Of a stretch of DNA of 64,000 nt, positions 4,863 through 57,261 are shown piece by piece (the first letter of the stretch is position 1; every line of letters starts with the position of its first letter). The DNA is from Candidatus Doudnabacteria bacterium (lineage in GTDB: Bacteria > Patescibacteriota > Doudnabacteria > UBA920 > O2-02-FULL-48-8). The position numbers were made by a program, and so were the translations under genes. The notes under the pieces are model-generated. The model was not told where the DNA came from, did no database searches, and worked only from the letters and a program-made list of their open reading frames with translations. Location: NCBI GenBank assembly GCA_016182875.1, contig JACPFQ010000004.1, positions 99,203 through 163,202 on the forward strand, written 5' to 3'.

Positions 4863-7319
4863 ATGCCGAAGGAAATTGAAAATAGCCAAGCCATAGGCCA
4901 AATCAACCAAAGGCCCATTGAGCGGGAAATGGAAGAGTCTTACCTAGACTATGCCATGAGTGTGATTGTCATGCGGGCCCTTCCCGACGTCCGAGACGGC
5001 TTAAAGCCGGTGCACAGAAGAATACTCTATGCCATGTCGGAGCTGGGGTTGCGTTCCAGCGCCAAATTTAGGAAATCGGCCGCAGTGGTGGGAGAAGTTT
5101 TGGCCAAATACCATCCGCACGGCGACGTGGCGGTTTATGACTCACTCGTCCGGCTCGCGCAGGATTTCGCGATGCGCTATCCGCTCGTCGACGGGCAGGG
5201 CAATTTTGGTTCCATGGATGGAGACGCTCCCGCCGCCATGCGCTATACCGAAGCGCGGATAACCCGGCTGGCAGAGGAAATGCTCGTTGATTTGGAAAAA
5301 GAAACGGTTGACTGGATGGACAATTACGACGCTACCCGGAAAGAACCGAAGGTTATGCCGGCCAAACTGCCCCAGCTTTTGCTAAACGGCACTCTGGGAA
5401 TCGCGGTGGGCATGGCCACCGATATTCCCCCCCATAACTTGGGCGAAATCGCGGATGCCGCCGTCAAACTCATCGACGACCCCAAGGCGACCACCGAAGA
5501 TTTATTGGAACATGTCAAAGGCCCTGACTTTCCAACCGGCGGCTTCATATATGACTGGAACGGGATCAAACAAATTTACGCCACTGGCAAGGGGCCTATT
5601 GTCATGCGCGGCCGGACAGAAATAATCGAAGAGAAGGGCCAGCATAAAATCATCATCAATGAAATTCCCTACCGCGTGAACAAAGCCACGCTTTTGGAGC
5701 AGTTTGCGGGATTAGTTAAGGAGAAAAAAGTGGAGGGCATAAAAGATTTGCGGGACGAATCGGATAAAGACGGGGTAAGAATAGTAATCGAATTGAAAAA
5801 AGAAGCCTTGCCCAACAAAATTCTAAACCAGCTTTTTAAATACTCGAGCCTCCAGGAAACATTTCACGTCAACATGCTCGCGCTCGTCGACGGCATTGAG
5901 CCGCGGGTGCTTAACTTAAAAAACATTTTGGAGTATTACATCATCCACCGCCTGGAAGTCGTGCGCAGGCGGTCAGAATTCGACTTGGCCCGGGCGCGGG
6001 ACCGCGCGCACATCCTGGAGGGTTTAAAAAAGGCTTTAGACCATATCGACGCCGTAATCACGACAATCAAGAAGTCCAACACCACCGAAGAGGCGCATGC
6101 GGCGTTGATGAGCAGATTTAAATTAAGCGACAAGCAAGCTACGGCCATCCTTTTGATGCAGCTGCGGGCCCTGGCCGGACTCGAGCGGAAAAAAATCGAT
6201 GACGAACTAAAGGAAAAAAAGCAGCAAATCGAAGAGCTGCTAAGCCTGCTTGGCTCCGAGAAAAAGATGCGGGCTGTGATTAAGAACGAACTTAGCGAGC
6301 TGAAGACAAAATACGGAAACGACCGCAAAACGACCTTGATAAAAACACCCATCGGTGAATTCAAGGTCGAGGACCTTATTCCCGAAGAACAAACCATCGT
6401 GATTATCACCAAATCCGGATACGTTAAGCGCGTCCCGCCGCAAACATATAAAACCCAAGGCCGGGGAGGCAAGGGTGTAATCGGCATGACCACGAAAGAA
6501 GAAGACGTGGTCGAGTGGCTGATTACGACCAACACTCACGACGATATTCTGTTCTTCACGAACAAGGGCCGTGTGTTCCAAACCAAAGTCTATGAACTGC
6601 CGGAAGCGTCGAGAGTAGCGCGCGGACAGGCTTTGGTCAATTTCCTGGAGCTTCCCACGGACGAAACTGTCCGCAGTGTGCTGACCATTTCCAAAAAAAC
6701 TCCTCTGAAGTTTCTGGTCTTGGCGACCAGGCAAGGCCTAATCAAAAAAACCCCGATTGAAGAATTTGCAAAAGTCCGACGGTCAGGCTTAATTGCGATC
6801 AAATTAAAAGCCGGGGACGAACTGCGATTCGTCAAATATTCCACTGGCGTTGACGAAATCATCCTTTCGACCATCAACGGCCAAGCCATTCGCTTCGACG
6901 AAAAGGACGTGCGGAGCATGGGCCGGGCGACTTCGGGCGTGCGCGGCATCAGGCTCCGAAAGGGAGACGAGCTAATCAGCCTCGACCTCATTTCCAAAAA
7001 AGATGAGCCGAAAAACCTGCAACTTTTGATAGTCACGGAAAATGGCTTGGGCAAAAAAACCGACTTGTCACTGTACAAAAAACAGCGGCGGGGAGGTTCG
7101 GGAATCAAGACTTTGAAGGTCACGCCCAAAACCGGCAAGATCGAGTCCATGCATGTCGTCAATAAAACCGAAGAGCACGACCTCGTGGTCTTGTCCAAAA
7201 ATGGACAGGCGCTTCGCACTCCAATTGCCAAAATCTCAACGTTAGGCCGCGCCACGCAAGGTGTGCGCATCATGACCTTGGAAGACAAAGATAAGGTTGC
7301 TTCAACAACGCTGATATAA
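4863..7319 (+). CDS. gyrA: DNA gyrase subunit A
   Basis: [27 protein letters not shown] and the downstream topoisomerase IIA motifs; 818 aa. Confidence 0.95.
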
Positions 7320-19767: not shown

Positions 19768-20874
19768 TTGAAGACCATTATGAAAGTAGTATGCACCAAA
19801 GATAACTTAAGAAGAGGCCTGTTTGCCGTAAGCCGGGTGGTCGGGAGCGGAAACCCGTTGCAGGTTTTGAATAACATTTTGGTCAAAACCGACCAGGGGC
19901 GGGTCAAGCTATCTTCCACCAATCTTGAAATTGGAGTCAACACCTGGATTGGCGGAAAGATAGAAGAGGAGGGGGCGCTGACCGTGCCGGCCAGGCTGAT
20001 GAATGAATATATAAATAACCTGCCGGCTGACAAGGTTCTCATTACGGTTAAGGACACGGTTCTAAGCTTGGAGTCAGAGAATTATCACACGAATATCAAG
20101 GGGCTTTCGTCAGAAGATTTCCCCCTAATTCCACAGGTACTGGACGAGCCATACACCAAAGTTGACTCCGATGAGCTTAAATCAGCGCTTGCTGAAACAG
20201 TTTGGGCTGCGGCCAACAACGAGACCCAACCCGAGATTTCGGGGATATTTGTCGCTTTCGAGGATAACAAATTAAGGATTGCCGCCACTGACCGGTACCG
20301 CCTGGCAGAAAGAGTCGTGCCGCTTGCTGCTGCGGTCGCCACAAATAAAGAAGCTATAATTCCATCAAGGACAATCGGCGAGCTTTATAAAATACTTAGC
20401 CTGGGCAAGGGTGGGGTAGAAATTTACTTTTCGGAATCCCAGGTCTTGTTTAAGTTCGACGAGACCGAAATCATCTCACGCCTCATAGACGGCAACTATC
20501 CTGACTACCGCCAGATTATTCCGAAGACCTTTAAGACCGAAGCCGAGGTCGGGAAGTCAGAACTGCTTCACGCGCTCAAGGCAGCAAGCTTGTTTGCTCC
20601 TGACTCAAATAACGTCCAGGTGGAAGCGGGCAAGACCGAGCTGACAGTCGCCGCTTCGTCCGCCGCTGCCGGCGAAAACGTCACCAAGGTCGCAGCAGCA
20701 GTCAAGGGAGATAGCAACAGCGCAGTGTTCAACTTTCGATATCTCATCGATTGCCTCAACGCCTTGCCGGAAGAAAAAGTAATTCTTAAGATGATTAATG
20801 ACGCTTCGCCGGCCATGCTGCTGCCAGCCGGCCGCGATAATTATTTATACATCGTAATGCCAATTAAGCTGTAA
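19768..20874 (+). CDS. dnaN: DNA polymerase III beta sliding clamp
   Basis: MKVVCTKDNL... three-domain clamp architecture; 368 aa. Confidence 0.9.
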   Translation: MKTIMKVVCTKDNLRRGLFAVSRVVGSGNPLQVLNNILVKTDQGRVKLSSTNLEIGVNTWIGGKIEEEGALTVPARLMNEYINNLPADKVLITVKDTVLSLESENYHTNIKGLSSEDFPLIPQVLDEPYTKVDSDELKSALAETVWAAANNETQPEISGIFVAFEDNKLRIAATDRYRLAERVVPLAAAVATNKEAIIPSRTIGELYKILSLGKGGVEIYFSESQVLFKFDETEIISRLIDGNYPDYRQIIPKTFKTEAEVGKSELLHALKAASLFAPDSNNVQVEAGKTELTVAASSAAAGENVTKVAAAVKGDSNSAVFNFRYLIDCLNALPEEKVILKMINDASPAMLLPAGRDNYLYIVMPIKL

Positions 20875-22013
20875 TGAAGCTGGAAAGCATTGCTTTAGAA
20901 AATTTCCGCAACTACTCAAAAATCGAGGTCAATATAAATTCCGACCTCGTTTTGATTTTGGGGGCGAACGCCTCCGGCAAGACCAATTTTTTGGAAAGCA
21001 TTTATTTTTTGTCCCGTTTGAAGTCGTTCCGCAGCCCAGACCAGTTTCTTGTTAAAATCGGAGAGAACTATTTTAAGCTGGCGGCAAATGTCATTGCGAG
21101 GCCGGACTTGATCCGGCCGAAGCAATCTCATGGAGAGATCGCCGCGTCGTCCCGCCAAGGCGGGACTCCTCGCGATGACCAAGAAAAAGACCTAGAAGTT
21201 ATAGTCCAAGTCACCCCTATTTTAAAGCGCAGCTTTAAACTTAACGGCCAGAAAATCAAGCGCGGGCTTTGGCAAAGTTTTGCCGCGGTGCTGTTCATTC
21301 CCACTGACCTGAATTTGTTTTCTTTGGGTCCGTTATTGAGGCGAAGATACCTAGATGACACTTTATCCCAAGTCAGCAAAAATTATGCTTTTGATTTAGT
21401 TTCTTTGGACCATGTACTTGGTCAGCGCAAGGCCTTGCTGGAAAAAATAGCACTTCAGCAAGCCCAGCGTGAGGAGCTAAGCTTCTGGAACGAGCAGCTG
21501 ATTACTTTGACTTTAAGCATCGGCCAGGAGCGGAAATGTTTTTTGGATTTTTTAAACGAGCGGTTGAACTCGGTCTATTCGCAGTTGTCCGGTTTCAAAA
21601 ATAAATTCGCGGTTGAATACAAAACTGATGCTCAGGGCGACCTGCATAAACTGATCAAAGAGCATGAGGGGGCGGAGGTTAGGTCCGGCCAAAACCTCAT
21701 AGGACCGCATCGGGAAGACTTTGTCCTTAACAAAGACGGATTGTTGAATGTTTATAATTCATCCCGCGGCGAGCTCCGCTCCCAAATCTTGGCGATTAAG
21801 TTTTTACAAGCTGAGTACCTGAACAGCCACGACTTCAAGCCAATTATCTTTTTGGACGATGTTTTTTCCGAGCTCGACGAGGAGCGCCGGATTAAATTAC
21901 TGGAGAATCTTTCTGGCCACCAGATTTTTATCACGACCACCGAAGAGCACCACTTACCGGAAATAAAACAAGCGCAAAAGTTAAAAGTCGAGAATGGACA
22001 GTTCCTCCCCTGA
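20874..22013 (+). CDS. recF: DNA replication/repair protein RecF
   Basis: Walker A (LGANASGKTNFLESI) and a signature/Walker B region near the C-terminus. Confidence 0.9.
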   Translation: MKLESIALENFRNYSKIEVNINSDLVLILGANASGKTNFLESIYFLSRLKSFRSPDQFLVKIGENYFKLAANVIARPDLIRPKQSHGEIAASSRQGGTPRDDQEKDLEVIVQVTPILKRSFKLNGQKIKRGLWQSFAAVLFIPTDLNLFSLGPLLRRRYLDDTLSQVSKNYAFDLVSLDHVLGQRKALLEKIALQQAQREELSFWNEQLITLTLSIGQERKCFLDFLNERLNSVYSQLSGFKNKFAVEYKTDAQGDLHKLIKEHEGAEVRSGQNLIGPHREDFVLNKDGLLNVYNSSRGELRSQILAIKFLQAEYLNSHDFKPIIFLDDVFSELDEERRIKLLENLSGHQIFITTTEEHHLPEIKQAQKLKVENGQFLP

Positions 22014-22046
22014 TACCCCCTCTAACTCCCCCTTCCAGGGGGAGAA
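22013..22046 (+). terminator. recF terminator hairpin that is also a minimal copy of the palindromic-element terminal repeats (TAACTCCCCC-ttcca-GGGGGAGaaTTA)
   Basis: CCCCC-TTCCA-GGGGG stem-loop followed by aattatttttct; its ends match those of the elements inside uvrB and valS. Confidence 0.55.
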
Positions 22047-22141
22047 TTATTTTTCTAAAAATTAGACAAATCAAAAGAGCGAGGCCGACCCATACGGGGT
22101 CAAACCTCGCCCTCTCGTCCGGTCGAATGACCGGAACGTGT

Positions 22142-23884
22142 CTATCTGTCTTCCTCCTCCCTTTCGTTATCGAGCTCCATGTGAAGGCCTTGTGAGACCC
22201 TCAACATGAATTCGCGGCGCTCGTTCGGCTTGCCGCCGAAGAACTTAAACCTTCTCTCGACCTTCTTGGGTTCGTGGGCCACCACGTGATCCGCGGTCAT
22301 CATATTGATGACCTTCTGTTCCGCCTCAAGCCCGTCGACATGCTGAGCGAGCGCGGTTACCGCACTGCGGGCTTCACCCGTGACCCGCTCGACGGCAGCG
22401 ATGCGGTCCATCATGGACTGCCGCAGCTCGGCACCGTACTTGGTAACGACTTCCGTGGCCTGCGCCCGCGCCGCTGTAGTGACCCGCGCCTCGAGCCCGT
22501 CGAGCCCACTGTACTGGATCCTCAGGGCAGCGAGCTGCTGGCCCTGCGCCTGAACTTGCCGACGGAGCGCGGTGATGTCAGCGCTTGGCTGCGGCTGGGT
22601 GACCTGCTTCTGCACCGCCTCGATGCGCTGCTGCAGTCGGTAACCCATGGCGTTGGTCTGGTTATCCATGACTGTCACGTATTTGTCGGAGACGATTGTT
22701 CGGCCGTCCTGGCAGGTGACACCGACCTTGGTAGCTACCTTCCGAGCGTTGACCGGGTCGATGTTGACCGTGCCCACCACTTGCGTGGGTGAAGCGCTCG
22801 TCACGGTCATGCTGACACCGCGCGTGATATTCACCGCCGTCGGGTTTCCGGTGCAGAGGTTGCTGCCCGACAGGGTCAGCATCTGCGGTACCGGGTGGTC
22901 CACGACGATGGTGTCCGGTGATATCGAGGTGATCTGTCCGGCGGCCTGTGCGAACGCTGCGTTCGCGTAGCCGCCAAACAGCAGCGCCAGGATGATCACG
23001 GGAACCACAGGAGCCGGAGCCGCGGGAACGGCGGGCTGAGCCGAGACTTCCGCCGAGTTCGGTCCCTCGCCAGACCCGTAGTACGCGCTCACGACGTAGA
23101 AGTATTGGGTGCCGTTCGTGAGCCCCGCTGCGTCGGTGTAGGTCGTCGCATTGGCCGTGCCGACGATTGTGTACGGGCCGCCGGCAGTCGTGGCGCGTTT
23201 GACCGTGTAGAACACAGCGCCTGTGATTGCCGCCCAGTTGAGGACGACCTGAGCGTTCCCTGGCGTTGCCGCAAGCCCTGTGGGAGCAGCAGGTCTGTGT
23301 GCTTCCTGAGCGCGCCGACGGACTTCGGCGTCGCGGTCCTCCGGTTGTGCAGGACCGCGCCGCCGTAAGAACCAGACGGCAATGATGAGCACGAGCAGTC
23401 CCACACCAGCCCAGACGAACGGGGCCAAGTTGATGGCCGCTGGCGGACAGCCGGTGGTCAGAACGGGCGTTCCCTGCGGGGTGTCCTTGCACTGGTCGAC
23501 GTTGTCCGCGACCTTGTCGCCGTCCGAGTCAGTGGCGGCCGGCGGCGGTTCCTGCGCCTTGTCTGCCGCCTGCTGCTGTTCTTGCGAACAGCCGTTGCGG
23601 AAGATGGGCACGCCTTGCGGGGTGTTGGCGCACTGGTCGTCGCTGTTCGGGATGCCGTCGCGGTCTGCATCCGCCACCGGGGTTGCCGGTTGCGGAGTTG
23701 GCGTTGGCGCGGGAGCCGCGGGCTGGCCCTGAGTGGCCGGTGGTGCCTGCGGCGCGGGCGCGGGTTGCGGAGTCGGCGGTTGCGCAGTCGCAGCCTCGGG
23801 CTCCTGTGGCACGACCGGAATCTGCGCGAACGCGCTGGCGCTGAGCGCCAGCATTGCGAGCACGAAAACGAACATTCTTATCAT
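22142..23884 (-). CDS. High-GC secreted/membrane surface protein. Order: signal peptide, Pro-rich linker, two TSP3-like Ca-binding repeats, TM helix, FN3-like domain, second signal-peptide-like segment, Cys-containing beta domain, long coiled coil
   Basis: I prefer ATG at 23884 (MIRMFVFVLAMLALSASAFAQ) with SD AGGAGGG 3 nt upstream over the track start at 24106. Repeats DADRDGIPNSDDQC and DSDGDKVADNVDQC. FN3-like segment NAQVVLNWAAITGAVFYTVKR...GTQYFYVVSAYY. Confidence 0.55.
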   Translation of the reverse strand: MIRMFVFVLAMLALSASAFAQIPVVPQEPEAATAQPPTPQPAPAPQAPPATQGQPAAPAPTPTPQPATPVADADRDGIPNSDDQCANTPQGVPIFRNGCSQEQQQAADKAQEPPPAATDSDGDKVADNVDQCKDTPQGTPVLTTGCPPAAINLAPFVWAGVGLLVLIIAVWFLRRRGPAQPEDRDAEVRRRAQEAHRPAAPTGLAATPGNAQVVLNWAAITGAVFYTVKRATTAGGPYTIVGTANATTYTDAAGLTNGTQYFYVVSAYYGSGEGPNSAEVSAQPAVPAAPAPVVPVIILALLFGGYANAAFAQAAGQITSISPDTIVVDHPVPQMLTLSGSNLCTGNPTAVNITRGVSMTVTSASPTQVVGTVNIDPVNARKVATKVGVTCQDGRTIVSDKYVTVMDNQTNAMGYRLQQRIEAVQKQVTQPQPSADITALRRQVQAQGQQLAALRIQYSGLDGLEARVTTAARAQATEVVTKYGAELRQSMMDRIAAVERVTGEARSAVTALAQHVDGLEAEQKVINMMTADHVVAHEPKKVERRFKFFGGKPNERREFMLRVSQGLHMELDNEREEEDR

Positions 23885-24133
23885 CACACCCTCCTGTGAG
23901 ATGTGAAAGTTGGCCTCGCGGCCAGTTGAAACGAAACGCTCTGACGGCGTTTGGCCGCGAGCCAGTGCGTGAACTCTAGTAGCACTGCTTTTATGTCTGA
24001 AATTTATCCTGATGTAAATCAGGATCAGGCACAAAAGTAATCCTACTAAAATGGGGAGGAGCGAGGCAGTCTTGGTAGACCAGCCTCGCCCCACTCCTTC
24101 TTGCATCTCAGCGCTTGCGCGCTGAGTTTCCTC

Positions 24134-25960
24134 CTATCTGTTGTCTTCCTCCGGTCCGCCGTTGGGTGGCGCACCGTTCCGGGTCTCGCACGGGGTGGCC
24201 AGACCGAGCGCCTCGGCGACTGCTTGCGACGCCGTCTTGCGCTGGTTGGGCTGTCCGCGTCTGAGGAACCTGCCGCCAACGCGGTCAGGCTCGTCGTACA
24301 CGACATGCTGCATCGCAATGCAGGTGCCGGTCTCGACGTTGCCCATCCTGCCTTGCAGGTTGTTGACGTACCCGGCCTGGGTTGTCAGGGTCTTCGCGAG
24401 CTCCCCGGCGTAGCTAAGCGTCTGGTCAGCAACGCTGCGCGTCGCCTTGCCTGCCTCTTCGGCTGCGGCAATGCGCGACACCATGCGCTCCTCGAGGGTC
24501 TGGAGGTCGCTGAGGACATCCGCACGCCGCGCGAAGGGAGCCCATGATGCCTGGAGAAGCTCGCCAGCTTTCGCGTGCGTCGGCTGGGCGGAGTAGTCCA
24601 GGTAGCGCTTGTTCCCCTCTTCCCGCCCGTAGACCTGCTGGAACTTCTCCTGCAGGTAGTGTGAGAAACGCGGGTCGCGTCCGAACCGCTCGGCCGTGAT
24701 GTCGAGCACGGTCGCCGATTCCTGGCTGATGATGCGGACGACCGAGTTGCCCGACGCGATGTCGCCTGCGTCGGTGTTCACCACGAACGCCGTGGTCCCC
24801 GGCATGGCAGTCGCGTCTGCCTGGAGCTTGCTGATGATGGTGTTGCCCTTCATCACAATCTCCGTAGTGGTGGCCACACCGGTGCCGGCGTTGATGCCCG
24901 TGACCTTGCCGAGCTTGGCGTTGCGCGGGCAGGCCATGGTGATGGTCACGTCCGCGGCGTTGCCGCCCTGCACCAGGTATCCGTTCTGCACACTGACAGA
25001 ACGGACGGTGCACGTCGGAACTGCAGGGGCCGCGGGAGCGGCGGGCTGACCCTGAGCAGGCACCTGTGCGGCTGCCGGCTGCGGCGCTGCCGGCGGGGCC
25101 GGGGCAGCCGCACCGGGAGCGGCCGGCGCCGTGGTGACGGGTGGGGTCGGCTGCTGGGCGAGGGCGCTGTTGGCGCCGAGCCCGAGCAGGATGGCGATGA
25201 CGATGCTTCTCATGACAGTTCCTCCGAGTTTCCGGTTGATGTTGATGCCGAACCCGATGACGAGTCCGACGAGAATCACGAACCCGACGGCCCCGCCGAT
25301 GACGATGTACCGCAGCTTCTGATCGGTCCGCCGCGTGTCCTGGCGGGCGAGTAGCGCGTTGTTGGACGCCTTGATCGAGTACTGCCGGTCCATCCACGAG
25401 TTGTCCGCCGACGAGGCGATTGCCTTCTCGATTCGTCCGATGAGCGAGGCTTCGACGTCGTTCAGGCGGTGCTCGACGTCAGTAGGCGACGCGTTGTACG
25501 GCGCGACCTTGGCGATGTAGGTTCGGGTCGCTTCGAGAGGCGGTTGCGACGAGTCGGTGACCTTGACCGTGACCGTGTAGTCATCGCCTGGGATTTCTTC
25601 GCCACGCGATGAATACAGGTAGGCCTGACTCTTGCTCGGCAACCAGACATCGAGAATGTCTCCGTTCTTGATCTCGTCGACGATCTCCCACTTGTAGGGC
25701 TCGGTCCCGCCGCGCGCCGCCAGGTTGAACTCCTTGTAGCGGCCGGATTCGAACGCGATGGTCGTGGGTTCGACGATTGTCAACGAACCGGTTGCTGTCG
25801 CGGGCGGCTGCTGGGTCGAACCCGTCGCGGGCGGCGCCTGCTGAGTCGAAGTACCGGGCTGGCGAATCGTCGCGGTCTGCGCGCCGAGCGGCACCAGGTT
25901 CAAGAGGAACCCGAGCAGCAAAATCGCTGCGCAGATGAGGTACTGAGTCAACTTCTTCAT
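24134..25960 (-). CDS. High-GC surface protein, paralogous architecture to 22142..23884. Order: signal peptide, Thr/Pro-rich linker, Ig-like domain, TM helix, second signal peptide (with internal RBS + ATG at 25213), Pro-rich linker, Cys-containing beta domain, coiled coil
   Basis: SD AAGGGAGAG before ATG at 25960. GGTEPYKWEIV...DDYTVTVKVTD resembles bacterial putative-Ig domains. Internal GGAGGA-6nt-ATG (M250, MRSIVIAILLGLGANSALAQQ) is in frame. Confidence 0.55.
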   Translation of the reverse strand: MKKLTQYLICAAILLLGFLLNLVPLGAQTATIRQPGTSTQQAPPATGSTQQPPATATGSLTIVEPTTIAFESGRYKEFNLAARGGTEPYKWEIVDEIKNGDILDVWLPSKSQAYLYSSRGEEIPGDDYTVTVKVTDSSQPPLEATRTYIAKVAPYNASPTDVEHRLNDVEASLIGRIEKAIASSADNSWMDRQYSIKASNNALLARQDTRRTDQKLRYIVIGGAVGFVILVGLVIGFGININRKLGGTVMRSIVIAILLGLGANSALAQQPTPPVTTAPAAPGAAAPAPPAAPQPAAAQVPAQGQPAAPAAPAVPTCTVRSVSVQNGYLVQGGNAADVTITMACPRNAKLGKVTGINAGTGVATTTEIVMKGNTIISKLQADATAMPGTTAFVVNTDAGDIASGNSVVRIISQESATVLDITAERFGRDPRFSHYLQEKFQQVYGREEGNKRYLDYSAQPTHAKAGELLQASWAPFARRADVLSDLQTLEERMVSRIAAAEEAGKATRSVADQTLSYAGELAKTLTTQAGYVNNLQGRMGNVETGTCIAMQHVVYDEPDRVGGRFLRRGQPNQRKTASQAVAEALGLATPCETRNGAPPNGGPEEDNR

Positions 25961-25989
25961 GACTTGCTCTCCCTTTTGCTAACGAGCGG

Positions 25990-26226
25990 TTATGGTTCAA
26001 CGACAGTCACGTTGACTGCCATCAGTACTGCGTCGAGGTCGAACGTGGCCTGCTTGCCGCGGATTCGTCCGCGCGGCACGTGGTCGTCCCGAATCTCGAA
26101 CTTGTCTCCGACGTGGTCGGGGCCCGTGAGGACTCTCACCTTCCAGACCATCCTGCTAGGGTTGGTTGGGGAAGGATTGAAGCCCACGACATAGCCGGTA
26201 TACGCCGGTGACCCTCTGATCGTCAA
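25990..26226 (-). CDS. Small hypothetical protein (78 aa, TTG start) leading the high-GC minus-strand operon
   Basis: SD-like AGAGAGG upstream of TTG; same high G+C; 30 nt upstream of the next gene. Confidence 0.35.
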   Translation of the reverse strand: MTIRGSPAYTGYVVGFNPSPTNPSRMVWKVRVLTGPDHVGDKFEIRDDHVPRGRIRGKQATFDLDAVLMAVNVTVVEP

Positions 26227-26551
26227 AACGCACCTCTCTTTCTGAACAAATGCTGGTTGCGCCGCCGATACTTCCTAATTTTTAAGGCTTAAGAAACACG
26301 GGCGGCGCAACCAAAACTGAAACAAAATACACTATGGGATTTTAAAGAACGAACCGAATATGATAGCAAATTTTGGCACTTTTGTCAACCCCGACGCGCA
26401 AGCGGTCGGGGCTCCGACCGTAGCGTCGGAGTGCTCATGGTATTTTAGGCTAATTTTAGCCAAAAGCTGGCGCTAGGCTTGATTTTTTGCTTTAATACTA
26501 GTACAATTTAGCGTTCGTAAACCGCACTTTTAATTTTCCCAGGAGGGAGAA

Positions 26552-28138
26552 ATGATGTTTGCACAGATTTTTGTCGTCGTGGCGATTCTGGCTTCGGCCG
26601 GCGTCGCTTCCGCGCAAACGGTCTTTACTCCTTCCCTAAGAATTCCTGGGATTGGAGTAGAGCGAAAGAACATCAGCGGCGCGGTCCTGGACGATCGCAT
26701 CCGCAAGATAATTCTTTCACGGCAGTTCTGGCTCTTGCGGCAGGAATGCGCCAAGGATGCACCCAAGCGGCTGTTCGACAACTATTGGCGAATCATTGAG
26801 CCGGTGGCGGCGATTGAGCCCAGGCTTGATCCGTACATCATCGGAGCGCTGATTACTCTCGAAAGCTGCGTCGTTGAGAAAGCCGACAACGGGTTTGGTC
26901 CAGTTGGACTTTGCCAGATCGATATCGCGTCGGGCAAGGACCTCGGCATGAAGGTTCATGTTGAGCGGCGGTTCCGGTTGGTGCCGAGAAAAAATAGCCG
27001 CGGACAGATCCTCAAGGACAGGCGTGGAAGAGCGCTCGCTCGGCGCGTGTACTACTGGTATACCTATCCTGACGACGAGCGATGGGATCCAGCGAAGTGC
27101 ATCATGGGCATGCGCAATCGTCTGCTGCGCAGCTACAACGCCTACGGTTCGATGGATGCAACGCTCGCCGAGTACCACATGGGGCCAACGCGCATGAATC
27201 GTCTACTCTCGCTCTATACGGGTCAAAACGTGGTCAGGAATCCGACCAAAAAGGGCGAGGTCGCGGCCAAAGAAGTCATCGCGAAGCGGCAATTGCGCTA
27301 CGCGAAGATCTTCTTCGACAACACTCCGAGCTGGCGGCGCAGCGTCTGGCTTTACCTCAAGCGACTGCCTGACGACTCGGAAACGTACTACTTCAAAGAA
27401 GCCATGTGGGAAGGACTGCTTCGGTTTTACCATGACCCGCGGTACGGCGGCGGACCCGCGGCGTACGAACGACTGCAAGCCCGATACAGCGGGGCCTCTA
27501 GCCCAATGTGGTCGTTCTTCACGGAGGAGGAGCGTCAGCAGTATATGATCATGACCGTTGAGGCACTGGCCAAGGCGTACGATCCGCCCAGGCCTGGCGA
27601 GGGCGCGCGGCTCGTCCCGTTGCCTCAAGACCCGGCGTTCTTTGGGTTCAGGCCGAGACTTGAGGGGTCATCGCCGATTGGGGCGAAAGCGCTGAAACCG
27701 CAAGACAGACCATACTACATCGGGTCTGAAGCTTCAACGCTCGGCGCGCTCGTCTACATTTCTTACGAGCTTAGGCGGCTGACGGGGGCTGGGTTTCGGA
27801 TTTTGGAGACCAACTCGCTCGTCCGAGACAACGATTATCAGTTGCGTTTAAGAACTGATAACGTGAATGCGCGCACCAGCCTGCCCACGCACGTGATGGC
27901 CAAGGCCTTCGATCTTCCCTACAACTGGATGAGTCCGCAACTGCGGGAGAACTTGGAGTTCCTCCTGCAGGACCTGGCGTATGACGGCAAGCTGACATTC
28001 AGCCCCGAGTCAGGGAGCCAGCATACCGACCATGTCGTTCCTCATCCCGACGCGGAAGAGTTCTTCGACAAGGTCTACGCTGGAGCCGAACGTCAGCTGG
28101 CGGCGCGAAATGCCGCTCGTCGTGCAAACACCCAATAA
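26552..28138 (+). CDS. Secreted putative peptidoglycan hydrolase: signal peptide + lytic-transglycosylase (SLT)-like domain + C-terminal domain with an H-x6-D ... HxxH metal-site-like pattern (peptidase-like)
   Basis: Signal peptide MMFAQIFVVVAILASAGVASAQ. ITLESCVV...GFGPVGLCQI matches the SLT ES...GLMQ pattern. C-terminal SLPTHVMAKAFD and HTDHVVPH. SD AGGAGGGAG before the ATG. Confidence 0.5.
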   Translation: MMFAQIFVVVAILASAGVASAQTVFTPSLRIPGIGVERKNISGAVLDDRIRKIILSRQFWLLRQECAKDAPKRLFDNYWRIIEPVAAIEPRLDPYIIGALITLESCVVEKADNGFGPVGLCQIDIASGKDLGMKVHVERRFRLVPRKNSRGQILKDRRGRALARRVYYWYTYPDDERWDPAKCIMGMRNRLLRSYNAYGSMDATLAEYHMGPTRMNRLLSLYTGQNVVRNPTKKGEVAAKEVIAKRQLRYAKIFFDNTPSWRRSVWLYLKRLPDDSETYYFKEAMWEGLLRFYHDPRYGGGPAAYERLQARYSGASSPMWSFFTEEERQQYMIMTVEALAKAYDPPRPGEGARLVPLPQDPAFFGFRPRLEGSSPIGAKALKPQDRPYYIGSEASTLGALVYISYELRRLTGAGFRILETNSLVRDNDYQLRLRTDNVNARTSLPTHVMAKAFDLPYNWMSPQLRENLEFLLQDLAYDGKLTFSPESGSQHTDHVVPHPDAEEFFDKVYAGAERQLAARNAARRANTQ

Positions 28139-28162
28139 AAAAACCGCCCCGGAGGAGGCGGT
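28133..28162 (-). terminator. Rho-independent terminator for the minus-strand membrane-protein gene (hairpin CCGCC-ccggagga-GGCGG followed by a T-run on the minus strand)
   Basis: aaaaaaaaccgccccggaggaggcgg on the plus strand. Confidence 0.55.
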
Positions 28163-28215
28163 GAGTGCGGGGCCCGGGAATTGAAACGTTTAATGTTTCT
28201 GCCCGGGTCCTGTTT

Positions 28216-28791
28216 TTATTCCCTCAGCCCGGGTGCTTTGGCTTCGGGCGGGAGCTTGTCGTACAAATCAGAAATCAATTTGGAGACCGCGGTCGGGTTT
28301 GGGATGCGCGAGAACACGAACCGCTCGACTTCGCCGGCGGTTTGGATGTGGACATTGCCGTAATTTAAAAACGTCGGGAAAAAACCCTTAACCTCGGCCG
28401 TGACATCCTGCATGCGCGAGAGATAAACTTCGGAAATTTTGTGATGAATCAGGGAGTGCTGGTCAATGTCGACCACGCGCTCGTTGGTGACAATCTGGAC
28501 GTTGAGATAGTAAATCACCCAAAGCATGAGCAGGCCCAGGATCAGAAACAGCAGGTAGATGCTTTTGAGCAAAGCGTAAATTTCTTGGTAGGGAGAGACA
28601 AAGATAAAGGATGCGTAGTGGGGAAGGTATTGGTCAGCCAAAACCAGAATGGCCACGAACAGTAGCCAAAGTGCGAATCTGAGGGCAAATACAAACCAGT
28701 GCTGGCGGATGACGAGGTAAACTTCCTCGTTTTCCTGCTGGCCGGGGAACAGATTTTGCTTGAAGTGTTGTTTGAGGGTTGGCCAGTACAT
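28216..28791 (-). CDS. Hypothetical membrane protein (two TM helices plus a cytoplasmic domain)
   Basis: I prefer the start at M14 (MYWPTLKQ), where the repeated leader cassette ends exactly at the ATG; the track start is 28830. Confidence 0.5.
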   Translation of the reverse strand: MYWPTLKQHFKQNLFPGQQENEEVYLVIRQHWFVFALRFALWLLFVAILVLADQYLPHYASFIFVSPYQEIYALLKSIYLLFLILGLLMLWVIYYLNVQIVTNERVVDIDQHSLIHHKISEVYLSRMQDVTAEVKGFFPTFLNYGNVHIQTAGEVERFVFSRIPNPTAVSKLISDLYDKLPPEAKAPGLRE

Positions 28792-28796
28792 GATAG

Positions 28797-28868
28797 AATT
28801 TTGAATGATTAATTTTGAATTTTGATTCAAATTCGAATTTCAGAAATTAGAATATTCATTCGAAATTC
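28797..28868 (-). repeat. Copy 1 of a ~75-90-bp AT-rich promoter/leader cassette ending at the ATG of the downstream gene
   Basis: aattttgaatgattaattttgaattttgattcaaattcgaatttcagaaattagaatattcattcgaaatt; near-identical to copies 2 and 3. Confidence 0.6.
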
Positions 28869-28903: not shown

Positions 28904-29128
28904 TCAAAATTTAATGCTGTTCAAATCGGTTTGGGCGGCGGCGAATAAGCTTGCGGCAATGATGATGTAAAGCAAAGACACGCTCGCGGAAACCAGTTTG
29001 GAGCGTCCGAAGCGGTTGAGGGCGTAGAGCGCCAGAAAGCTATAAAGCGCAAACCCGGCCATGAGGACATAGAAAACCAGCGCGATTATTGTGTGAATGA
29101 GATTTGTTGGTTCGTAGACAGTGAGCAT
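28904..29128 (-). CDS. Small hypothetical membrane protein (74 aa, 2 TM)
   Basis: The ATG coincides with the end of cassette copy 2; two hydrophobic helices. Confidence 0.5.
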   Translation of the reverse strand: MLTVYEPTNLIHTIIALVFYVLMAGFALYSFLALYALNRFGRSKLVSASVSLLYIIIAASLFAAAQTDLNSIKF

Positions 29129-45307: not shown

Positions 45308-45410
45308 TGTTAATTCCTCCCCTAGAATAGGGGAGGTTAGGAGGGGTAGAGTACGAGCTTGAACCGTACCTCCCCTAGCCCCTCCTATTCTAGGAGGGGA
45401 ATTAAAATAT
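45308..45410. repeat. ~100-bp palindromic element (terminal inverted repeats TTAATTCCTCCCCTAGAATAGG / CCTATTCTAGGAGGGGAATTAA) filling the ruvA-femAB intergenic region
   Basis: Near-perfect 22-bp terminal inverted repeats plus internal sub-palindromes (GTACG...CGTAC). Confidence 0.5.
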
Positions 45411-46356
45411 GCTTTCAAATCTCACTCAAGAAGCCTGGGATAAAAAAGTAATCGAGCTGGGAGGCTCGATTTTGCAATCTTGGGCTTGGGGGGGATTCCA
45501 GCAAGCGTTGGGCAATAAAATCTACCGCCTTTCCGGTGAAACGTTTATAACGCTGGCAGTCGAGTTGCCGCTCAAAGCCGGCAAAAAATATCTTTATTGC
45601 CCCCGCGGGCCGTTGGGAGCTGTGGAAGAAGCCTTGGCAGATCTTAAAAATTTATCGGAGCAAGATCATGGCATTGTCTTTGCCCGCCTTGAGCCGAATA
45701 CGGCCCTGGATTTGCCTTCTGCCGCCAAAGAGGTCCAGCCCAAGCATAACTGGATGCTTAATATGGAAGGAAAAACACCGGAGCAATTGTTGATGGAGAT
45801 GAAGCCCAAAACTCGCTACAACATCAACCTGGCCCAGCGCAAAGGGGTGACTGTCCGCGAGGGGAGAAAAGAAGACTTGCTGGAAGTCTGGAAATTATTT
45901 TTGGAGACTGCTACGCGAAACAAATTCAGCCTGCATCCGCAGAATTATTACTGGCAGATGCTTGAAAGCTTGCCACCCAAGCATCTCAAAATTTTGATCG
46001 CGGAATACAAAGGCCAGATGCTTGCGGCTATGCTTGTAACTTTGTTCAGCGATGCCGCAACTTATTTGCATGGCGGCTCGGGCAATCAAATGAAAGAAGC
46101 TATGGCGCCGTATCTTCTGCACTGGGAAGCCATCAATTTGGCCAAAGATTTAGGATACAAACTTTACGACTTCGGCGGGGTCGCCCCGGCCGAAAAACAG
46201 GACCATTCTTGGGCCGGCGTTTCGCGCTTCAAAAAAAGCTTTGGGGGATTCGGAGTCGATTATCCCGGCGCTTACGATTTAGTTTTCTCCCCGGTTTGGT
46301 ATAATGTTTATAAACAAGCTCGTTTAGTTCGCAGGTTAGTAATAAGTAATAAGTAA
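45409..46356 (+). CDS. FemAB-family aminoacyltransferase (peptidoglycan interpeptide bridge formation)
   Basis: FemAB/GNAT-like fold motifs across 315 aa. Confidence 0.7.
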   Translation: MLSNLTQEAWDKKVIELGGSILQSWAWGGFQQALGNKIYRLSGETFITLAVELPLKAGKKYLYCPRGPLGAVEEALADLKNLSEQDHGIVFARLEPNTALDLPSAAKEVQPKHNWMLNMEGKTPEQLLMEMKPKTRYNINLAQRKGVTVREGRKEDLLEVWKLFLETATRNKFSLHPQNYYWQMLESLPPKHLKILIAEYKGQMLAAMLVTLFSDAATYLHGGSGNQMKEAMAPYLLHWEAINLAKDLGYKLYDFGGVAPAEKQDHSWAGVSRFKKSFGGFGVDYPGAYDLVFSPVWYNVYKQARLVRRLVISNK

Positions 46357-50002: not shown

Positions 50003-53000
50003 TTGTCTATGCAAAAAGAGAATGTTTTTATGTCCCCAAAAGCGAAAAGCCCCAATTTAAGCCTTGATTTTAGCAGGAAGCAGACCAAGGTCAGCAAACG
50101 GACTTCATTCACCCCTTTTCACGAAGTCATGGAGATGCCCAACCTTATCGAAGTCCAACTGGCTTCTTATCAGTGGTTTTTGCAACAAGGGCTCGCCGAG
50201 CTCTTTTCCGAAATCAACCCAATTAAAGATTTCACCGGTAAGAATTTTGAACTAGTCTTTGGCAATTATTTTTTGGATAAGCCCAAGTATGACGAAAAAA
50301 CCGCCAAGGAGCGTAACACTACTTTCGAAGCCCCTTTGTACGTTTCAGCCAAACTGATAAACAAGGCGACCGGAAAAACCAAGACTCAAGATGTTTATAT
50401 CGGCGACTTTCCCCTCATGACGCCTCGCGGGACTTTTGTGATTAATGGTGTGGAACGAGTAGTCGTTTCTCAGCTAGTGAAATCCCCAGGCGTATTTTTT
50501 ATGGCCGAAACCGCGCGCGGCCGCAACTGGTATGGAGCAAAAATTATTCCCAACCGCGGCGCTTGGCTGGAAATTGAAACCGACATCAACGGCGTCATCA
50601 GCGTAAAAATCGACCGCAAGCGAAGAATTCCGGTAACCGCCCTGTTTCGAGTTTTTGGTTTTACCTCCGACGAAGAAATTCTTTCCGCTTTTACGGAAGT
50701 CGATACCAACCCCGATCTCCGCTACATTCAAAATACGCTTGATAAAGACCCGTCCAAGAACGCCGACGAGGGCTTTAAGGAAGTTTATAAGCGCATCCGT
50801 CCGGGGGATTTGGCGACCGCCGATAATGCCCGCTCCCTGATTGAGGCCATGTTTTTTCATGCCGATCGTTATGACCTTTCGGAGGTCGGCCGGTATAAAT
50901 TAAATCAGCGCCTCAACATCAAGGACCGGCAGGACCGGATTTTGACCAAAGAAGATTTGGCGCAAATCATCAGTGAGGTCGTCCGGCTCAACAACAGCCA
51001 AGGCCCTTGGGACGACATCGACCACCTTTCCAACCGCAGGGTTCGCGCGGTCGGGGAACTGATTCAGGGCAAATTCCGCGTTGGGCTGGCCCGCATGGCG
51101 CGCATCGTCAAAGACCGCATGAGTTTGGCTGACGTCGAAACCGTCACTCCGGCCCAGCTCATCCACGTTCGCCCGATTGTCGCAGTCATCCAAGAGTTTT
51201 TTTCATCTTCCCAGCTGTCCCAGTTTATGGATCAGACCAACCCGCTGGCTGAATTGGAGCATAAGCGAAGACTTAGCGCCATGGGCCCTGGGGGACTGTC
51301 CCGCGAGCGGGCCGGTTTTGAAGTCCGGGACGTGCACCGCAGTCACTACGGCCGGCTTTGCCCCATCACCACACCAGAGGGTCCGAACATAGGCTTGGTG
51401 GCGCATTTGGCTTCCTATGCCCGCTTAAACGACTATGGATTTATCGAAACGCCTTACCGCAAAGTGGTGAAAGATGAATCAGGGCGGCGGCGGGTGACCA
51501 ACCAAATCGAATATCTTGACGCTTACGAAGAAGAGCATGTTATCATCGCTCAGGCCACCACAGCGTTCGATAAAGACGGCTACTTTTTGGAAGAGCGAGC
51601 CTCAGTCCGGGTGCACGCCGAACCTTCCATTGCCGCAACAAAGGACATTGATTACATGGAGGTTTCTCCAAAGCAGATTATTTCCGTGACCACTTCTTTA
51701 ATTCCTTTTTTGGAGCACGATGACGCAAACCGCGCGTTGATGGGTTCCAACATGCAGCGGCAGGCCGTGTCCTGCATTAAGCCTGAATCTCCGGTGGTCG
51801 GCACGGGAGTCGAGGCCAAAGCCGCTTATGATTCCGGCCAGGTCGCGATTGCGGAGACTGGCGGCGTTGTAACTTCGGTCAGCGGCGAAAAAATCGTGAT
51901 TGCGGACAATAACAACAAGAAGAAAGAATATTTGCTTCAGAAATTCATCCGGTCCAACACTTCCACGTCGATTAACCAGCATCCGATTGTCCGCAAGGGC
52001 CAGATTGTAAAGGCAGGAGAGGTTCTGGCCGACGGGGCGGCGATTGAAAACGGAGAGTTGGCTTTGGGCCAAAATTTGCTGGTCGGTTTTATGTCCTGGG
52101 AGGGCGGCAACTACGAAGATGCGATTTTGATTTCGTCCCGGGTGGTGGAAGAGGACCGCTATTCTTCCATTCACATTGAAGATTTTAAAGTTGACGTCCG
52201 CGATACCAAATTGGGGCCGGAAATTATCACCCGCGACATTCCCAACGTTGGGGAAGAAAAGCTGAAGGACCTGGACGAAAATGGAATAATCAGGATTGGC
52301 GCCCAGGTCAAAGCCGGCGACATTTTGGTCGGGAAAATCACTCCCAAAGGGGAAACCGATTTAACGGCGGAAGAAAAGTTGCTGCGAGTCATTTTCGGCG
52401 AAAAATCCCGCGACGTCAAAGACACTTCCCTAACCCTGCCTCATGGCGAATACGGCAAAGTCGTCCATATCCGGGAATTTTCGAGAGAGCAGGGGGACAA
52501 GCTTCCTTCGGGGGTCATTCGGTCAATCCAGGTTTCGATCGCGGTTTTGCGCAAAATCCAGGTTGGCGACAAGATGGCCGGCCGCCACGGCAACAAAGGA
52601 GTCATTTCGCAGGTAATTCCAGTGGAAGACATGCCGTTCGATGCCTCCGGCACGCCGGTAGACATCATTCTCAACCCCCTGGGCGTTGCAAGCCGCATGA
52701 ACATTGGGCAGATTCTTGAAACTCATTTAGGCTTGGCCGCGAAAAAGTTGGGATACAAAGTCGCTTCTCCGGCCCTGGACGGGGTGCCCGAAAATGTGAT
52801 TAAGCAAGAGCTTAAGAAAGCCGGCTTTCCTGAAGACGGAAAGTTGGTGCTGTATGACGGCAAGAGCGGCGAACCGTTTGCCGAGAAAGTTACAGTCGGG
52901 ATTATTTACATGCTGAAGCTTCACCATTTGGTGGACGACAAGATGCACGCGCGCTCCACCGGCCCTTATTCCTTGATTACCCAGCAGCCCTTGGGCGGCA

Positions 53001-53368
53001 AGGCTCAATTTGGCGGCCAGCGATTTGGAGAAATGGAAGTCTGGGCCTTGGAAGGGTACGGCGCGGCCCACACCCTCCAGGAAATGTTGACCATTAAATC
53101 CGACGATGTGGTCGGCAGGGCTAAAACCTATGAATCGATAGTTAAGGGCGAGCCGATTAAAAAGCCGAATGTCCCCGAATCGTTCCGCGTCTTGGTCAAA
53201 GAACTGCAGTCGCTGTGTTTGAATGTCGAACTGATTGGGGAAAAAGTAGCTGAAGCCGCTGAAGATAAAGCTGGAGAAATCAGGGAGCTCGTTACCAGCG
53301 ACAGGCCGGAGCCGGAGAAAATTGCGGTAGCTGAAGACAAAGGCAAGAAGAGAAAAAACAAGAGATAA
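50003..53368 (+). CDS. rpoB: DNA-directed RNA polymerase subunit beta
   Basis: Conserved beta-subunit blocks throughout; 1121 aa; the start may be at 50030 (MSPKAK). Confidence 0.95.
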
Positions 53369-53370
53369 CT

Positions 53371-57261
<3,891 letters not shown>

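Follow-up and report, generated by a model that had tools for sequence, protein, structure and literature searches.

How can a few neighbouring genes come to differ sharply in base composition and translation signals from the small genome that carries them, and does such a difference betray a recent arrival? The question is raised by a block at 22.1-28.2 kb of a 64,000-nucleotide stretch of a Candidatus Doudnabacteria metagenome-assembled genome (assembly GCA_016182875.1, contig JACPFQ010000004.1, positions 99,203 to 163,202); this whole stretch is the window, and coordinates without a locus label refer to it. The block is 58-66% guanine plus cytosine (GC) in a backbone of ~47-49%. Its four genes encode a hydrolase and, on the opposite strand, the proteins p78, A1B1 and A2B2.

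The block is one copy of a cassette recurring in Doudnabacteria and related Patescibacteria, with a hydrolase predicted to be exported by Sec at its core. A preliminary description of the window considered horizontal acquisition plausible; the foreign-looking composition and the surface-protein and secreted-hydrolase genes that it noted stand, and a recent arrival at this slot, between recF and a membrane-protein gene (bPH), does not. The reading that we favour, with moderate confidence, is that the block is an old resident with a persistent, unexplained offset in GC and Shine-Dalgarno (SD) use, a lineage-wide trait of the cassette and not a scar of recent transfer, and that the partner proteins serve as surface adhesins while the hydrolase opens the wall locally.

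Composition and translation signals of the block

Successive 1-kb windows from 22 to 28 kb have GC contents of 0.61, 0.66, 0.64, 0.64, 0.53 and 0.59, and all remaining 1-kb windows of the 64 kb lie between 0.40 and 0.55. At 200-bp resolution the steps fall at ~22.05-22.1 kb on the left and 28.17-28.3 kb on the right; the intergenic region at 26.2-26.55 kb, unlike the rest of the island, drops to 0.46. The four island genes have a GC of 0.58-0.65 and a GC at third codon positions (GC3) of 0.70-0.83 (backbone ~0.57), and the tetranucleotide L1 distance between island and backbone is 0.511, against 0.131 +/- 0.023 for 6-kb windows of the backbone (z = 16.5). Windowed GC, GC3 and tetranucleotide distance therefore all bear out the jump between ~22.05 and ~28.15 kb noticed in the preliminary description.

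The contrast is unevenly spread. The GC3 of two-fold codons is 0.67-0.88 in the island and 0.45 +/- 0.07 in the backbone; at four-fold sites the difference is much smaller (0.70-0.81 versus about 0.66-0.67, +/- 0.09). Since the backbone is itself GC-rich at four-fold sites and AT-leaning at two-fold sites, the island stands out mainly through its two-fold codons and its amino-acid composition, G+A+R+P accounting for 0.32-0.37 of residues in island proteins and 0.24 in the backbone. The split codon usage of the backbone (four-fold 0.67, two-fold 0.45) is seen, for example, in genes at 4863-7319 and 50003-57261, and a like split (0.76-0.82 versus 0.43-0.48) is present in the flanks of L010 and L011, two of the related loci introduced below.

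An SD motif lies upstream of 4/4 island genes and 4/41 backbone genes (Fisher p = 5e-4), so that the earlier claim of SD-led island genes on a backbone where such sites are rarer also holds. Duplex energies with the anti-SD sequence range from -8.6 to -10.8 kcal/mol in the island and average -1.1 in the backbone, a contrast that persists when each backbone gene is given its best alternative start (Mann-Whitney p = 8e-4). The sole backbone gene with a perfect AGGAGG SD (45409-46356) belongs to the FemAB family of peptidoglycan interpeptide-bridge synthesis and has ordinary backbone composition.

A recurrent cassette in a variable slot

A word-indexed search of 5.8 billion proteins returned only 2-3 relatives per island protein. 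In locus L008 the gene order is recF, B, A, hydrolase, bPH and, further on, ruvB and M17, at 58-67% GC in a 42-50% backbone, A and B being the two partner modules described below; in L010 (Doudnabacteria RIFCSPHIGHO2_01_FULL_46_24) it is recF, B, p78, hydrolase, bPH. The slot is the same as in the window, and flanking proteins are 54-91% identical, RecF at 54-66% in the two loci and the bPH protein at 86% in L008 and 71-72% in L010.

Elsewhere the cassette occupies other sites. In L005 and L011 (Doudnabacteria 12_FULL_48_16), B and the hydrolase, with A also in L005, lie between the RNase J and solute-binding protein genes, at 56-69% GC in a 44-52% backbone. At six Patescibacteria loci (L034-L037, L039 and L040) the hydrolase adjoins GroEL/GroES, and its partner genes there encode small SD-led proteins unrelated to A or B; in the Minisyncoccia locus L038 it adjoins a LysM-M23 gene. 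At least four different loci thus hold the cassette across genomes. An SD precedes cassette genes in nearly all genomes, the exception in Doudnabacteria being the L008 A gene at its called start.

Two observations concern other GC-rich genes near cassettes. The GroEL locus of L036 has a different GC-rich partner set, an rve-family integrase and five tandem SD-led genes lying directly upstream of the hydrolase (L036:2958-7715; the five products have ~157-201 amino acids, at GC3 0.63-0.70 versus ~0.34 for the backbone). In L010 a second GC-rich gene (L010:15158-16099; 0.61 versus ~0.51) is found ~3.6 kb past the cassette, and there may be further GC-elevated genes in these genomes.

With the bPH protein as anchor, a search for empty sites found no clean recF|bPH junction; two distant relatives hold other genes there. 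L030 has a split purD and no cassette, and L033 carries 5 kb of polysaccharide genes of backbone composition together with a DUF721-like gene (recognized by eye). No relative checked, with or without the cassette, has gyrB between recF and bPH, which contradicts the initial idea that the block replaces gyrB. Because its contents differ, the slot is best described as variable, the cassette filling it in one sub-lineage only. The purD of L030 (L030:10653-12067) is split into open reading frames (ORFs) of 245 and 201 amino acids that both contain MGAFAPHPAMA, a sign of a frameshift, of a pseudogene or of faulty assembly.

A GC offset that follows the host genome

The hydrolase gene is richer in GC than its flanks in 12/12 Patescibacteria genomes, by a mean of 0.095 in GC and 0.16 in GC3 (Wilcoxon p = 2.4e-4), and hydrolase and flank values are correlated (Spearman rho 0.85 for GC, 0.91 for GC3). 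The offset disappears only in L037, a syntenic relative with a whole-genome GC of 60%. L037 and L034 share gene order and a GroEL that is 86% identical, yet they are 16-20 GC points apart (overall GC 0.60 versus 0.44; GroEL GC3 0.89 versus 0.38). Expressed as logits, GC3 is shifted by 0.69 +/- 0.24 in hydrolases and by 1.48 +/- 0.34 in B-type partners, whose GC offset is 0.152-0.170 in five genomes.

Two general causes of high GC3 were tried and rejected. Codon optimization for high expression is ruled out by the GroEL gene beside the hydrolase, which has a backbone-like or lower GC3, and a property common to secreted proteins is ruled out by a secreted LTD protein, which behaves in the same way; neither expression level nor secretion accounts for the offset.

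The alleles appear to be old. At conserved four-fold sites the third-base identity among cassette hydrolases is 0.27-0.34, where 0.30-0.32 is expected at saturation, and the flanking ruvB and bPH genes are not saturated (0.47-0.55 versus 0.29-0.37 expected). Saturation next to unsaturated flanks suggests that the cassette alleles are older than the split of their hosts, or have been exchanged.

In the mechanism proposed here, cassette GC follows the host genome and is raised above it by a roughly constant amount, and some weak GC-favouring force would maintain the offset. Possible causes are weak selection on codons or mRNA, or GC-biased gene conversion accompanying the exchange of divergent cassette alleles. 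The SD sites would probably make up for GC-rich, structured 5' regions, for which the SD-independent initiation of AT-rich backbone leaders would not serve.

The hydrolase

The hydrolase (26552..28138, plus strand; 528 amino acids, with AGGAGGG upstream) consists of a signal peptide, an N-terminal family-1 lytic transglycosylase (SLT) domain and a C-terminal DUF5715-like domain. The SLT match (PF01464) scores 24.7 bits, above the Pfam cut-off of 21.3, and the DUF5715 match (PF18979) scores 20.9 bits, below the cut-off of 26.8; among 36 family members, SLT is matched by 35/36 (best E = 5.6e-19) and DUF5715 by 16/36 (best E = 1e-9). The preliminary label of an SLT plus peptidase-like hydrolase is therefore secure in its first half, the second corresponding to the sub-threshold DUF5715 match. 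Glu104, within a TLESC motif, is invariant in the 36 relatives and Ser105 is at least 90% conserved; towards the C-terminus, His447 is invariant, and Asp454 and His494 are at least 90% conserved. In sequence searches of the PDB, EmtA and T7 gp16 were matched weakly over the ES motif (E ~0.04), and no match covered the C-terminal domain. An AlphaFold model from a 3-sequence alignment has a mean predicted local distance difference test (pLDDT) score of 43.5, with the C-terminal domain below 50.

The predicted activity is muralytic. The SLT domain would cut glycan strands via Glu104, and the His...Asp...His set of the DUF5715-like domain may form a LAS/M15-like zinc peptidase site acting on peptide stems. 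DUF5715 is not mentioned in any paper found and is an uncharacterized domain.

Partner proteins

Modules A and B are encoded by separate genes 36 bp apart in L008 (L008:9053-11098), and are twice fused in frame in the window. In these fusions, which are identical across independent assemblies, the signal peptide of B is internal; it appears oriented to re-export B, and signal peptidase would then split B from A. Module A would be a membrane-anchored ectodomain of Ig, FN3 or TSP3 type, and module B a stalked coiled-coil protein with a basic tail.

In A1B1 (24134..25960, minus strand; 608 amino acids, GC 0.65, GC3 0.83, no Pfam family), in module A a signal peptide precedes an Ig-like ectodomain, which is followed by a C-terminal transmembrane segment (TM); beyond the boundary at residue 250, module B starts with a signal peptide and a Pro/Ala stalk, continues with an Ig-like domain and a coiled coil, and ends in a basic tail. 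A1B1 is 38% identical across A+B of L008, and its B part is 52% identical to P0005. A2B2 (22142..23884, minus strand; GC 0.65, GC3 0.77) runs from a signal peptide through a Pro-rich stalk, two TSP3-like repeats, a TM and an FN3-like domain to a second, signal-peptide-like TM, followed by an IPT/Ig-like domain (seen by eye only), a ~150-residue coiled coil and a basic C-terminal motif (FFGGKPN). Its hydrophobic segments are residues 1-26, 148-175 and 283-312. The FN3 and TSP3-like domains named in the preliminary description correspond to real matches that fall short of the Pfam cut-off of 25 (fn3 E = 1.2e-4, 22.7 bits; TSP_3 E = 2.4e-3, 17.9 bits). A 654-residue frame had also been read here; the most plausible start is the ATG at 23884, with AGGAGG upstream, which gives 580 amino acids. 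These two large proteins had been called paralogous. A common architecture and C-terminal motif, and a leave-one-out profile that finds B2 at E = 2.4e-5, argue weakly for this relationship; their pairwise BLASTP match is not significant (E = 1.2).

The product of p78 (25990..26226, minus strand, with GAGAGGTG upstream; 78 amino acids) has a 46-48% identical homologue at the equivalent position in L010. A cold-shock domain, suspected by eye, is not supported by hhalign (probability 2.5% against CspA/CspB), and a PDB sequence search gave chance matches only. Searches of the A, B and p78 segments against Pfam, NCBIfam and PHROGs found nothing above threshold, and these proteins are orphans. A word-indexed search with a 6-sequence B alignment recovered the query itself and one Doudnabacteria protein only, a yield that is low because Pro/Ala linkers probably swamped the candidate list. 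The AlphaFold model of module B, also from a 3-sequence alignment, has a mean pLDDT of 37.

A proposed role in wall opening and attachment

It has been proposed that lytic transglycosylases of Patescibacteria compromise the envelopes of hosts (PMC11665869), and two-domain hydrolases that join SLT to a peptidase serve envelope-spanning machines in monoderms (PMC12102498). The likely function of the cassette, as judged from sequence, would combine wall breaching with adhesion. The hydrolase gene and the partner operon diverge from one AT-rich promoter region. In the window the partners, p78 and two A-B fusions, are lineage-specific, very fast-evolving exported proteins, of which the A/B proteins may form adhesive surface fibrils that mediate attachment and diversify under selection. 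The hydrolase would open peptidoglycan locally, either that of a partner cell or the cell's own at the sites of fibril insertion.

Several points weigh against an old resident cassette of this function. The 12 genomes in which the offset was measured are not phylogenetically independent, and the taxonomy of L034-L037, L039 and L040 was assigned by synteny and named cluster mates, not by markers. The grouping of B-type proteins depends mainly on position and architecture, leave-one-out profiles recovering 4/6 of them; the topology of A2 would put its FN3-like domain in the cytoplasm, which is odd; and both AlphaFold models are unusable. Finally, one old import from a donor of ~68% GC would also account for the regression of hydrolase on flank GC, hydGC = 0.56 x flankGC + 0.30.

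The main functional rival is a housekeeping role, in which the hydrolase is an autolysin of the cell's own growth or division and the coiled-coil partner its tether or activator, after the logic of EnvC, PcsB and CwlO, and the cassette is neither a host-directed weapon nor an adhesin. Secreted coiled-coil regulators of murein hydrolases are well known. The hydrolase seems widely kept and syntenic in small genomes, as it is beside GroEL at six loci, and in Vicinamibacterales it is an ordinary chromosomal gene of native composition; the window also encodes a class A penicillin-binding protein, FemAB and a Mur ligase, which indicate that the organism makes peptidoglycan. Against it, the partner genes are not conserved: the recF, RNase J and GroEL loci have entirely different sets of them. 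They also diverge more rapidly than any of the flanks and encode adhesin-type domains. The hydrolase has no adjacent FtsEX-like genes, and atypical codon usage is uncommon for housekeeping genes. A housekeeping role is possible, and we consider it doubtful.

Resident or import

An exhaustive profile search found 651 hydrolase cluster representatives, 81 of them below 1e-30. Named family members come from Doudnabacteria, 'Patescibacteria group', Minisyncoccia and Acidobacteriota (Bryobacteraceae), and a scan of species-representative genomes detected homologues in 2 Doudnabacteria and 13 Vicinamibacteria/Vicinamibacterales genomes, so that the Acidobacteriota (Vicinamibacterales, Bryobacteraceae) are the only named holders outside Patescibacteria. 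Vicinamibacterales hydrolase genes have native composition (61-66% GC) and partial synteny. The best identity to Acidobacteriota copies is 27-39%; among Doudnabacteria copies it is 37-61%. No relatives of A, B or p78 were found within 10 kb of Acidobacteriota hydrolases; six-frame clustering of the Vicinamibacterales neighbourhoods gave partial synteny only, its noise in high-GC DNA being too great for conserved partners to be defined. The deep branching of a neighbour-joining tree of ~60 members is star-like and loci of the same synteny are scattered in it, so no direction of transfer is drawn from it. An old exchange with high-GC Acidobacteriota possibly seeded the family.

One ancient import that is still ameliorating, from an Acidobacteriota-like donor into early Patescibacteria, would have brought in the hydrolase with or without its partners. 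The family is common to Patescibacteria and Acidobacteriota, and the GC regression given above and its counterpart for GC3 (hydGC3 = 0.58 x flankGC3 + 0.38) agree on a donor of ~0.68 GC and ~0.90 GC3 and on ~56-58% amelioration. A slow decay from one source should, however, have left a trace at third positions: the F81 substitution model predicts an identity of 0.43-0.44 at conserved four-fold sites in deep pairs, and 0.30 is observed (n = 295; saturation 0.31; z -4.6 to -5.0). The cassettes are also more diverged than the genes that flank them, and the partners are even GC-richer than the hydrolase and have no Acidobacteriota relatives. We regard an ancient import as unlikely.

Also unlikely is a physical association in which Doudnabacteria-like episymbionts would partner with high-GC Acidobacteriota, Vicinamibacterales for example, and of which the SLT-DUF5715 family would be the mark. 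The coding style of the cassette would then be upheld by exchange with, or tuning to, the gene pool of the partner, and the cassette would determine host range in attachment and wall breaching. The relative synonymous codon usage (RSCU) of the island correlates at 0.91 with Vicinamibacterales hydrolase genes, 0.81 with a high-GC candidate phyla radiation (CPR) genome and 0.51 with its own backbone. Doudnabacteria cassettes correlate at r = 0.96 with one another, at 0.91-0.95 with Vicinamibacterales hydrolases and at 0.81-0.86 with the high-GC Patescibacteria genome; with one high-GC control only, the Vicinamibacterales-like codon usage is merely suggestive. No paper connecting Doudnabacteria with Vicinamibacteria was found. 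If true, this partnership would be the first sequence-based host prediction for Doudnabacteria.

A recent acquisition, in which the block was lately taken from a high-GC organism, perhaps the host of an episymbiont, and has not yet ameliorated, is improbable. The island stands far apart from the backbone in GC, GC3 and tetranucleotide usage, SD use is atypical of the recipient, and both RSCU and tetranucleotide frequencies (correlation 0.915 with Vicinamibacterales loci versus 0.18 with the backbone) lie closer to Vicinamibacterales, where 13 Vicinamibacteria genomes of 61-66% GC hold full-length homologues; the tetranucleotide likeness, however, is largely an effect of GC, judged against one other high-GC control. 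Four findings together contradict a recent import: hydrolase GC follows host GC across the 12 genomes, no close donor is found (Acidobacteriota copies being less similar than Doudnabacteria ones, and free of A, B or p78 relatives nearby), the cassette occupies the same slot in L008 and L010 as well as other loci, and mobility signatures are absent, neither mobility genes, att repeats nor a tRNA having been found. A paper on horizontal gene transfer in Patescibacteria does not mention these genes.

That the block is the remnant of a mobile element (prophage, integrative element or transposon) retaining a distinct composition is very improbable. PHROG matches of the hydrolase to 'endolysin' (E = 7e-5) and of the A2 FN3 region to 'major tail protein' (E = 1e-5) would fit it, as would the presence of cassettes at several loci and the rve integrase that adjoins the one in L036; those PHROG matches, however, reflect generic SLT and FN3 domains. 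The block and its immediate flanks (recF and the bPH gene) contain no integrase, replication, capsid or transposase gene, no att-like, terminal, direct or inverted repeats were found at the island borders, and the island proteins have no relatives among the 2.9 million viral contigs of IMG/VR. No tRNA was seen at the junctions on reading the sequence, no ARAGORN run having been made.

An assembly chimera, in which a piece of some high-GC genome would have been joined to that of a Doudnabacteria, is extremely unlikely despite the sharp steps at both edges and the precedent of L027, since contigs assembled independently (Logan) from four sequencing runs are colinear with the window and L008 and L010, obtained in other studies, repeat the gene order; promoters and terminators are, moreover, coherently arranged at the island edges. 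All four Logan contigs encode the exact hydrolase protein. L001 and L002 cross both junctions and each show 3 mismatches, in 12.3 kb and 10.4 kb respectively (at least 99.97% identity), and L003 and L004 cross the right-hand junction only; mis-assembly at the junctions, to be excluded according to the preliminary description, is thus not indicated. Within the island only two differences separate window and Logan contigs, at 22919 and 22922 in the Ig-like region of B2, and both are synonymous, since the protein is 100% identical. All four contigs stop at 28825-28833, inside the 5' end of the bPH gene and ~650 bp beyond the island, which suggests a branch in the assembly graph caused by strain variation or a repeat.

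The related contig L027 does jump abruptly, within the hydrolase gene. It is 100% identical to the L010/L026 genome over 2831 bp and then continues in unrelated DNA of 57-64% GC (L027:2832-5599; compare L026:11741 onward), where the N-terminus of a 2-oxoacid:ferredoxin oxidoreductase gamma-like protein is in frame with the C-terminal half of the hydrolase and a PilZ-like protein of 384 amino acids is encoded (both recognized by eye). This switch is either an assembly chimera or a real rearrangement of the cassette.

Gene layout, edges and regulatory elements

The gene order in the window is dnaA, dnaN and recF (plus strand), A2B2, A1B1 and p78 (minus), the hydrolase (plus), bPH (minus), and then a 74-residue ORF, ruvB, the M17 peptidase gene and VanW. 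ORFs and translations agree with the layout first described, a minus-strand operon for proteins of 78, 608 and 580 amino acids and a divergent hydrolase gene.

On the left, recF (20874..22013, plus strand; Pfam SMC_N E = 9e-18, GC 0.46, no SD) is a backbone gene. It is followed at the backbone edge by an intrinsic-terminator-like hairpin (22026..22044, plus strand), found in a terminator scan, with an 8-bp stem of 6 GC pairs and a T-run. The left edge of the island is marked by a second terminator-like hairpin, past the A2B2 stop and followed by TTTT (22070..22116, minus strand), which was read from the sequence and is missing from the scan list because its loop exceeds 8 nt.

The divergent AT-rich intergenic region of 325 bp, with p78 as the first gene of the operon on one side, holds two sigma-70-like promoters and a leader hairpin. 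The promoter predicted for the minus-strand operon (26360..26388, minus strand; TTGACA-17-TGnTATCAT) matches 11/12 consensus positions, a consensus match only. The one predicted for the hydrolase (26479..26507, plus strand; TTGATT-17-TACAAT) matches 9/12, in the part where GC is 0.46. The presumed leader of the p78 operon contains a strong hairpin, inverted repeat I1, with 25-nt arms (26254..26313, minus strand); the 138-nt leader has an RNA fold of -43.8 kcal/mol (z = -3.8 versus shuffles). An Rfam scan of 21.8-28.4 kb, a range in which a riboswitch preceding the hydrolase gene would lie, yielded no more than a chance match to a miRNA, and no family for the leader hairpin.

At the right edge lie two GC-rich hairpins with A/T-run flanks (28143..28212, unstranded), one a scan match at 28162-28143 and the other read from the sequence; these are interpreted as putative convergent terminators of the hydrolase (plus) and bPH (minus). 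The bPH gene itself (28216..28791, minus strand), a backbone gene, encodes a bPH_2-domain membrane protein (Pfam bPH_2 E = 3.9e-4). Between it and ruvB, the 74-residue ORF (28904-29128) is 56-77% identical in Doudnabacteria relatives and has no family assignment.

Significance and comparison with known systems

No member of the Doudnabacteria has been cultured and, to our knowledge, no host of theirs is known. A conserved wall-cutting enzyme accompanied by hypervariable surface proteins is a concrete candidate for attachment to and opening of a partner cell, and the restriction of the named members of the enzyme family to Patescibacteria and Acidobacteriota gives a testable hint of the host. 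The cassette is also a counterexample to the rule that atypical GC means recent transfer: its anomaly is common to deeply diverged copies and moves with the host genome. Some force lifts a handful of genes by 10-17 GC points over the small genome that carries them, and translation of these genes is initiated in a different mode; finding that force could inform on codon and initiation constraints in SD-poor bacteria. What is unusual is a lineage-wide, host-tracking offset in GC and SD together with the distribution of the enzyme between Patescibacteria and Acidobacteriota. Rather than a fresh host-to-symbiont transfer, the cassette represents a reproducible, unexplained compositional phenomenon tied to a plausible host-interaction locus in a lineage without cultures.

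The hydrolase resembles TraG of pIP501, PrgK of pCF10, TcpG and the VirB1-like class in general (PMC12102498) in having an exported N-terminal SLT domain and a second wall-cleaving domain. Those two-domain hydrolases are thought to open peptidoglycan locally for a surface structure, as is proposed here. By contrast, their second domain is CHAP or M23 and that of the hydrolase is DUF5715-like (His/Asp/His), and the partner genes here encode orphan adhesin-like proteins. The window genes checked include none for a type IV secretion system (T4SS; VirB4, VirD4, VirB6), and neither these nor pilin genes adjoin the hydrolase; its neighbours are recF, bPH, RuvB, M17 peptidase and VanW, and the window encodes a single secretion ATPase, whose PilB-type gene of a type IV pilus lies 6.4 kb away in conserved backbone. 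With a different second domain and no T4SS context, the hydrolase is not a member of the two-domain VirB1 class. The ES motif and its surrounding helices also align with family-1 lytic transglycosylases of the Slt70/EmtA type and with T7 gp16; the similarity is weak, and the hydrolase differs from them in its length of 528 amino acids, its insertion-rich middle of ~200 residues and its extra C-terminal domain.

In composition, GC-biased gene conversion or codon selection, acting as a weak and constant force in favour of GC, would produce a near-constant logit GC3 shift like the one seen here (0.7 to 1.5). Unlike the effect of gene conversion, however, the shift appears to exceed the values reported for recombining versus non-recombining genes, and it is accompanied by a gain of SD sites.

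The E. coli/Salmonella O-antigen rfb cluster, located between galF and gnd, is low in GC and encodes sugar pathways. Like the rfb locus, the recF|bPH slot lies between conserved genes and holds very divergent alleles for surface-facing products, which have an atypical composition and seem older than the split of their hosts. Unlike it, the cassette is GC-rich, encodes proteins and a hydrolase, and occupies several slots in different lineages.

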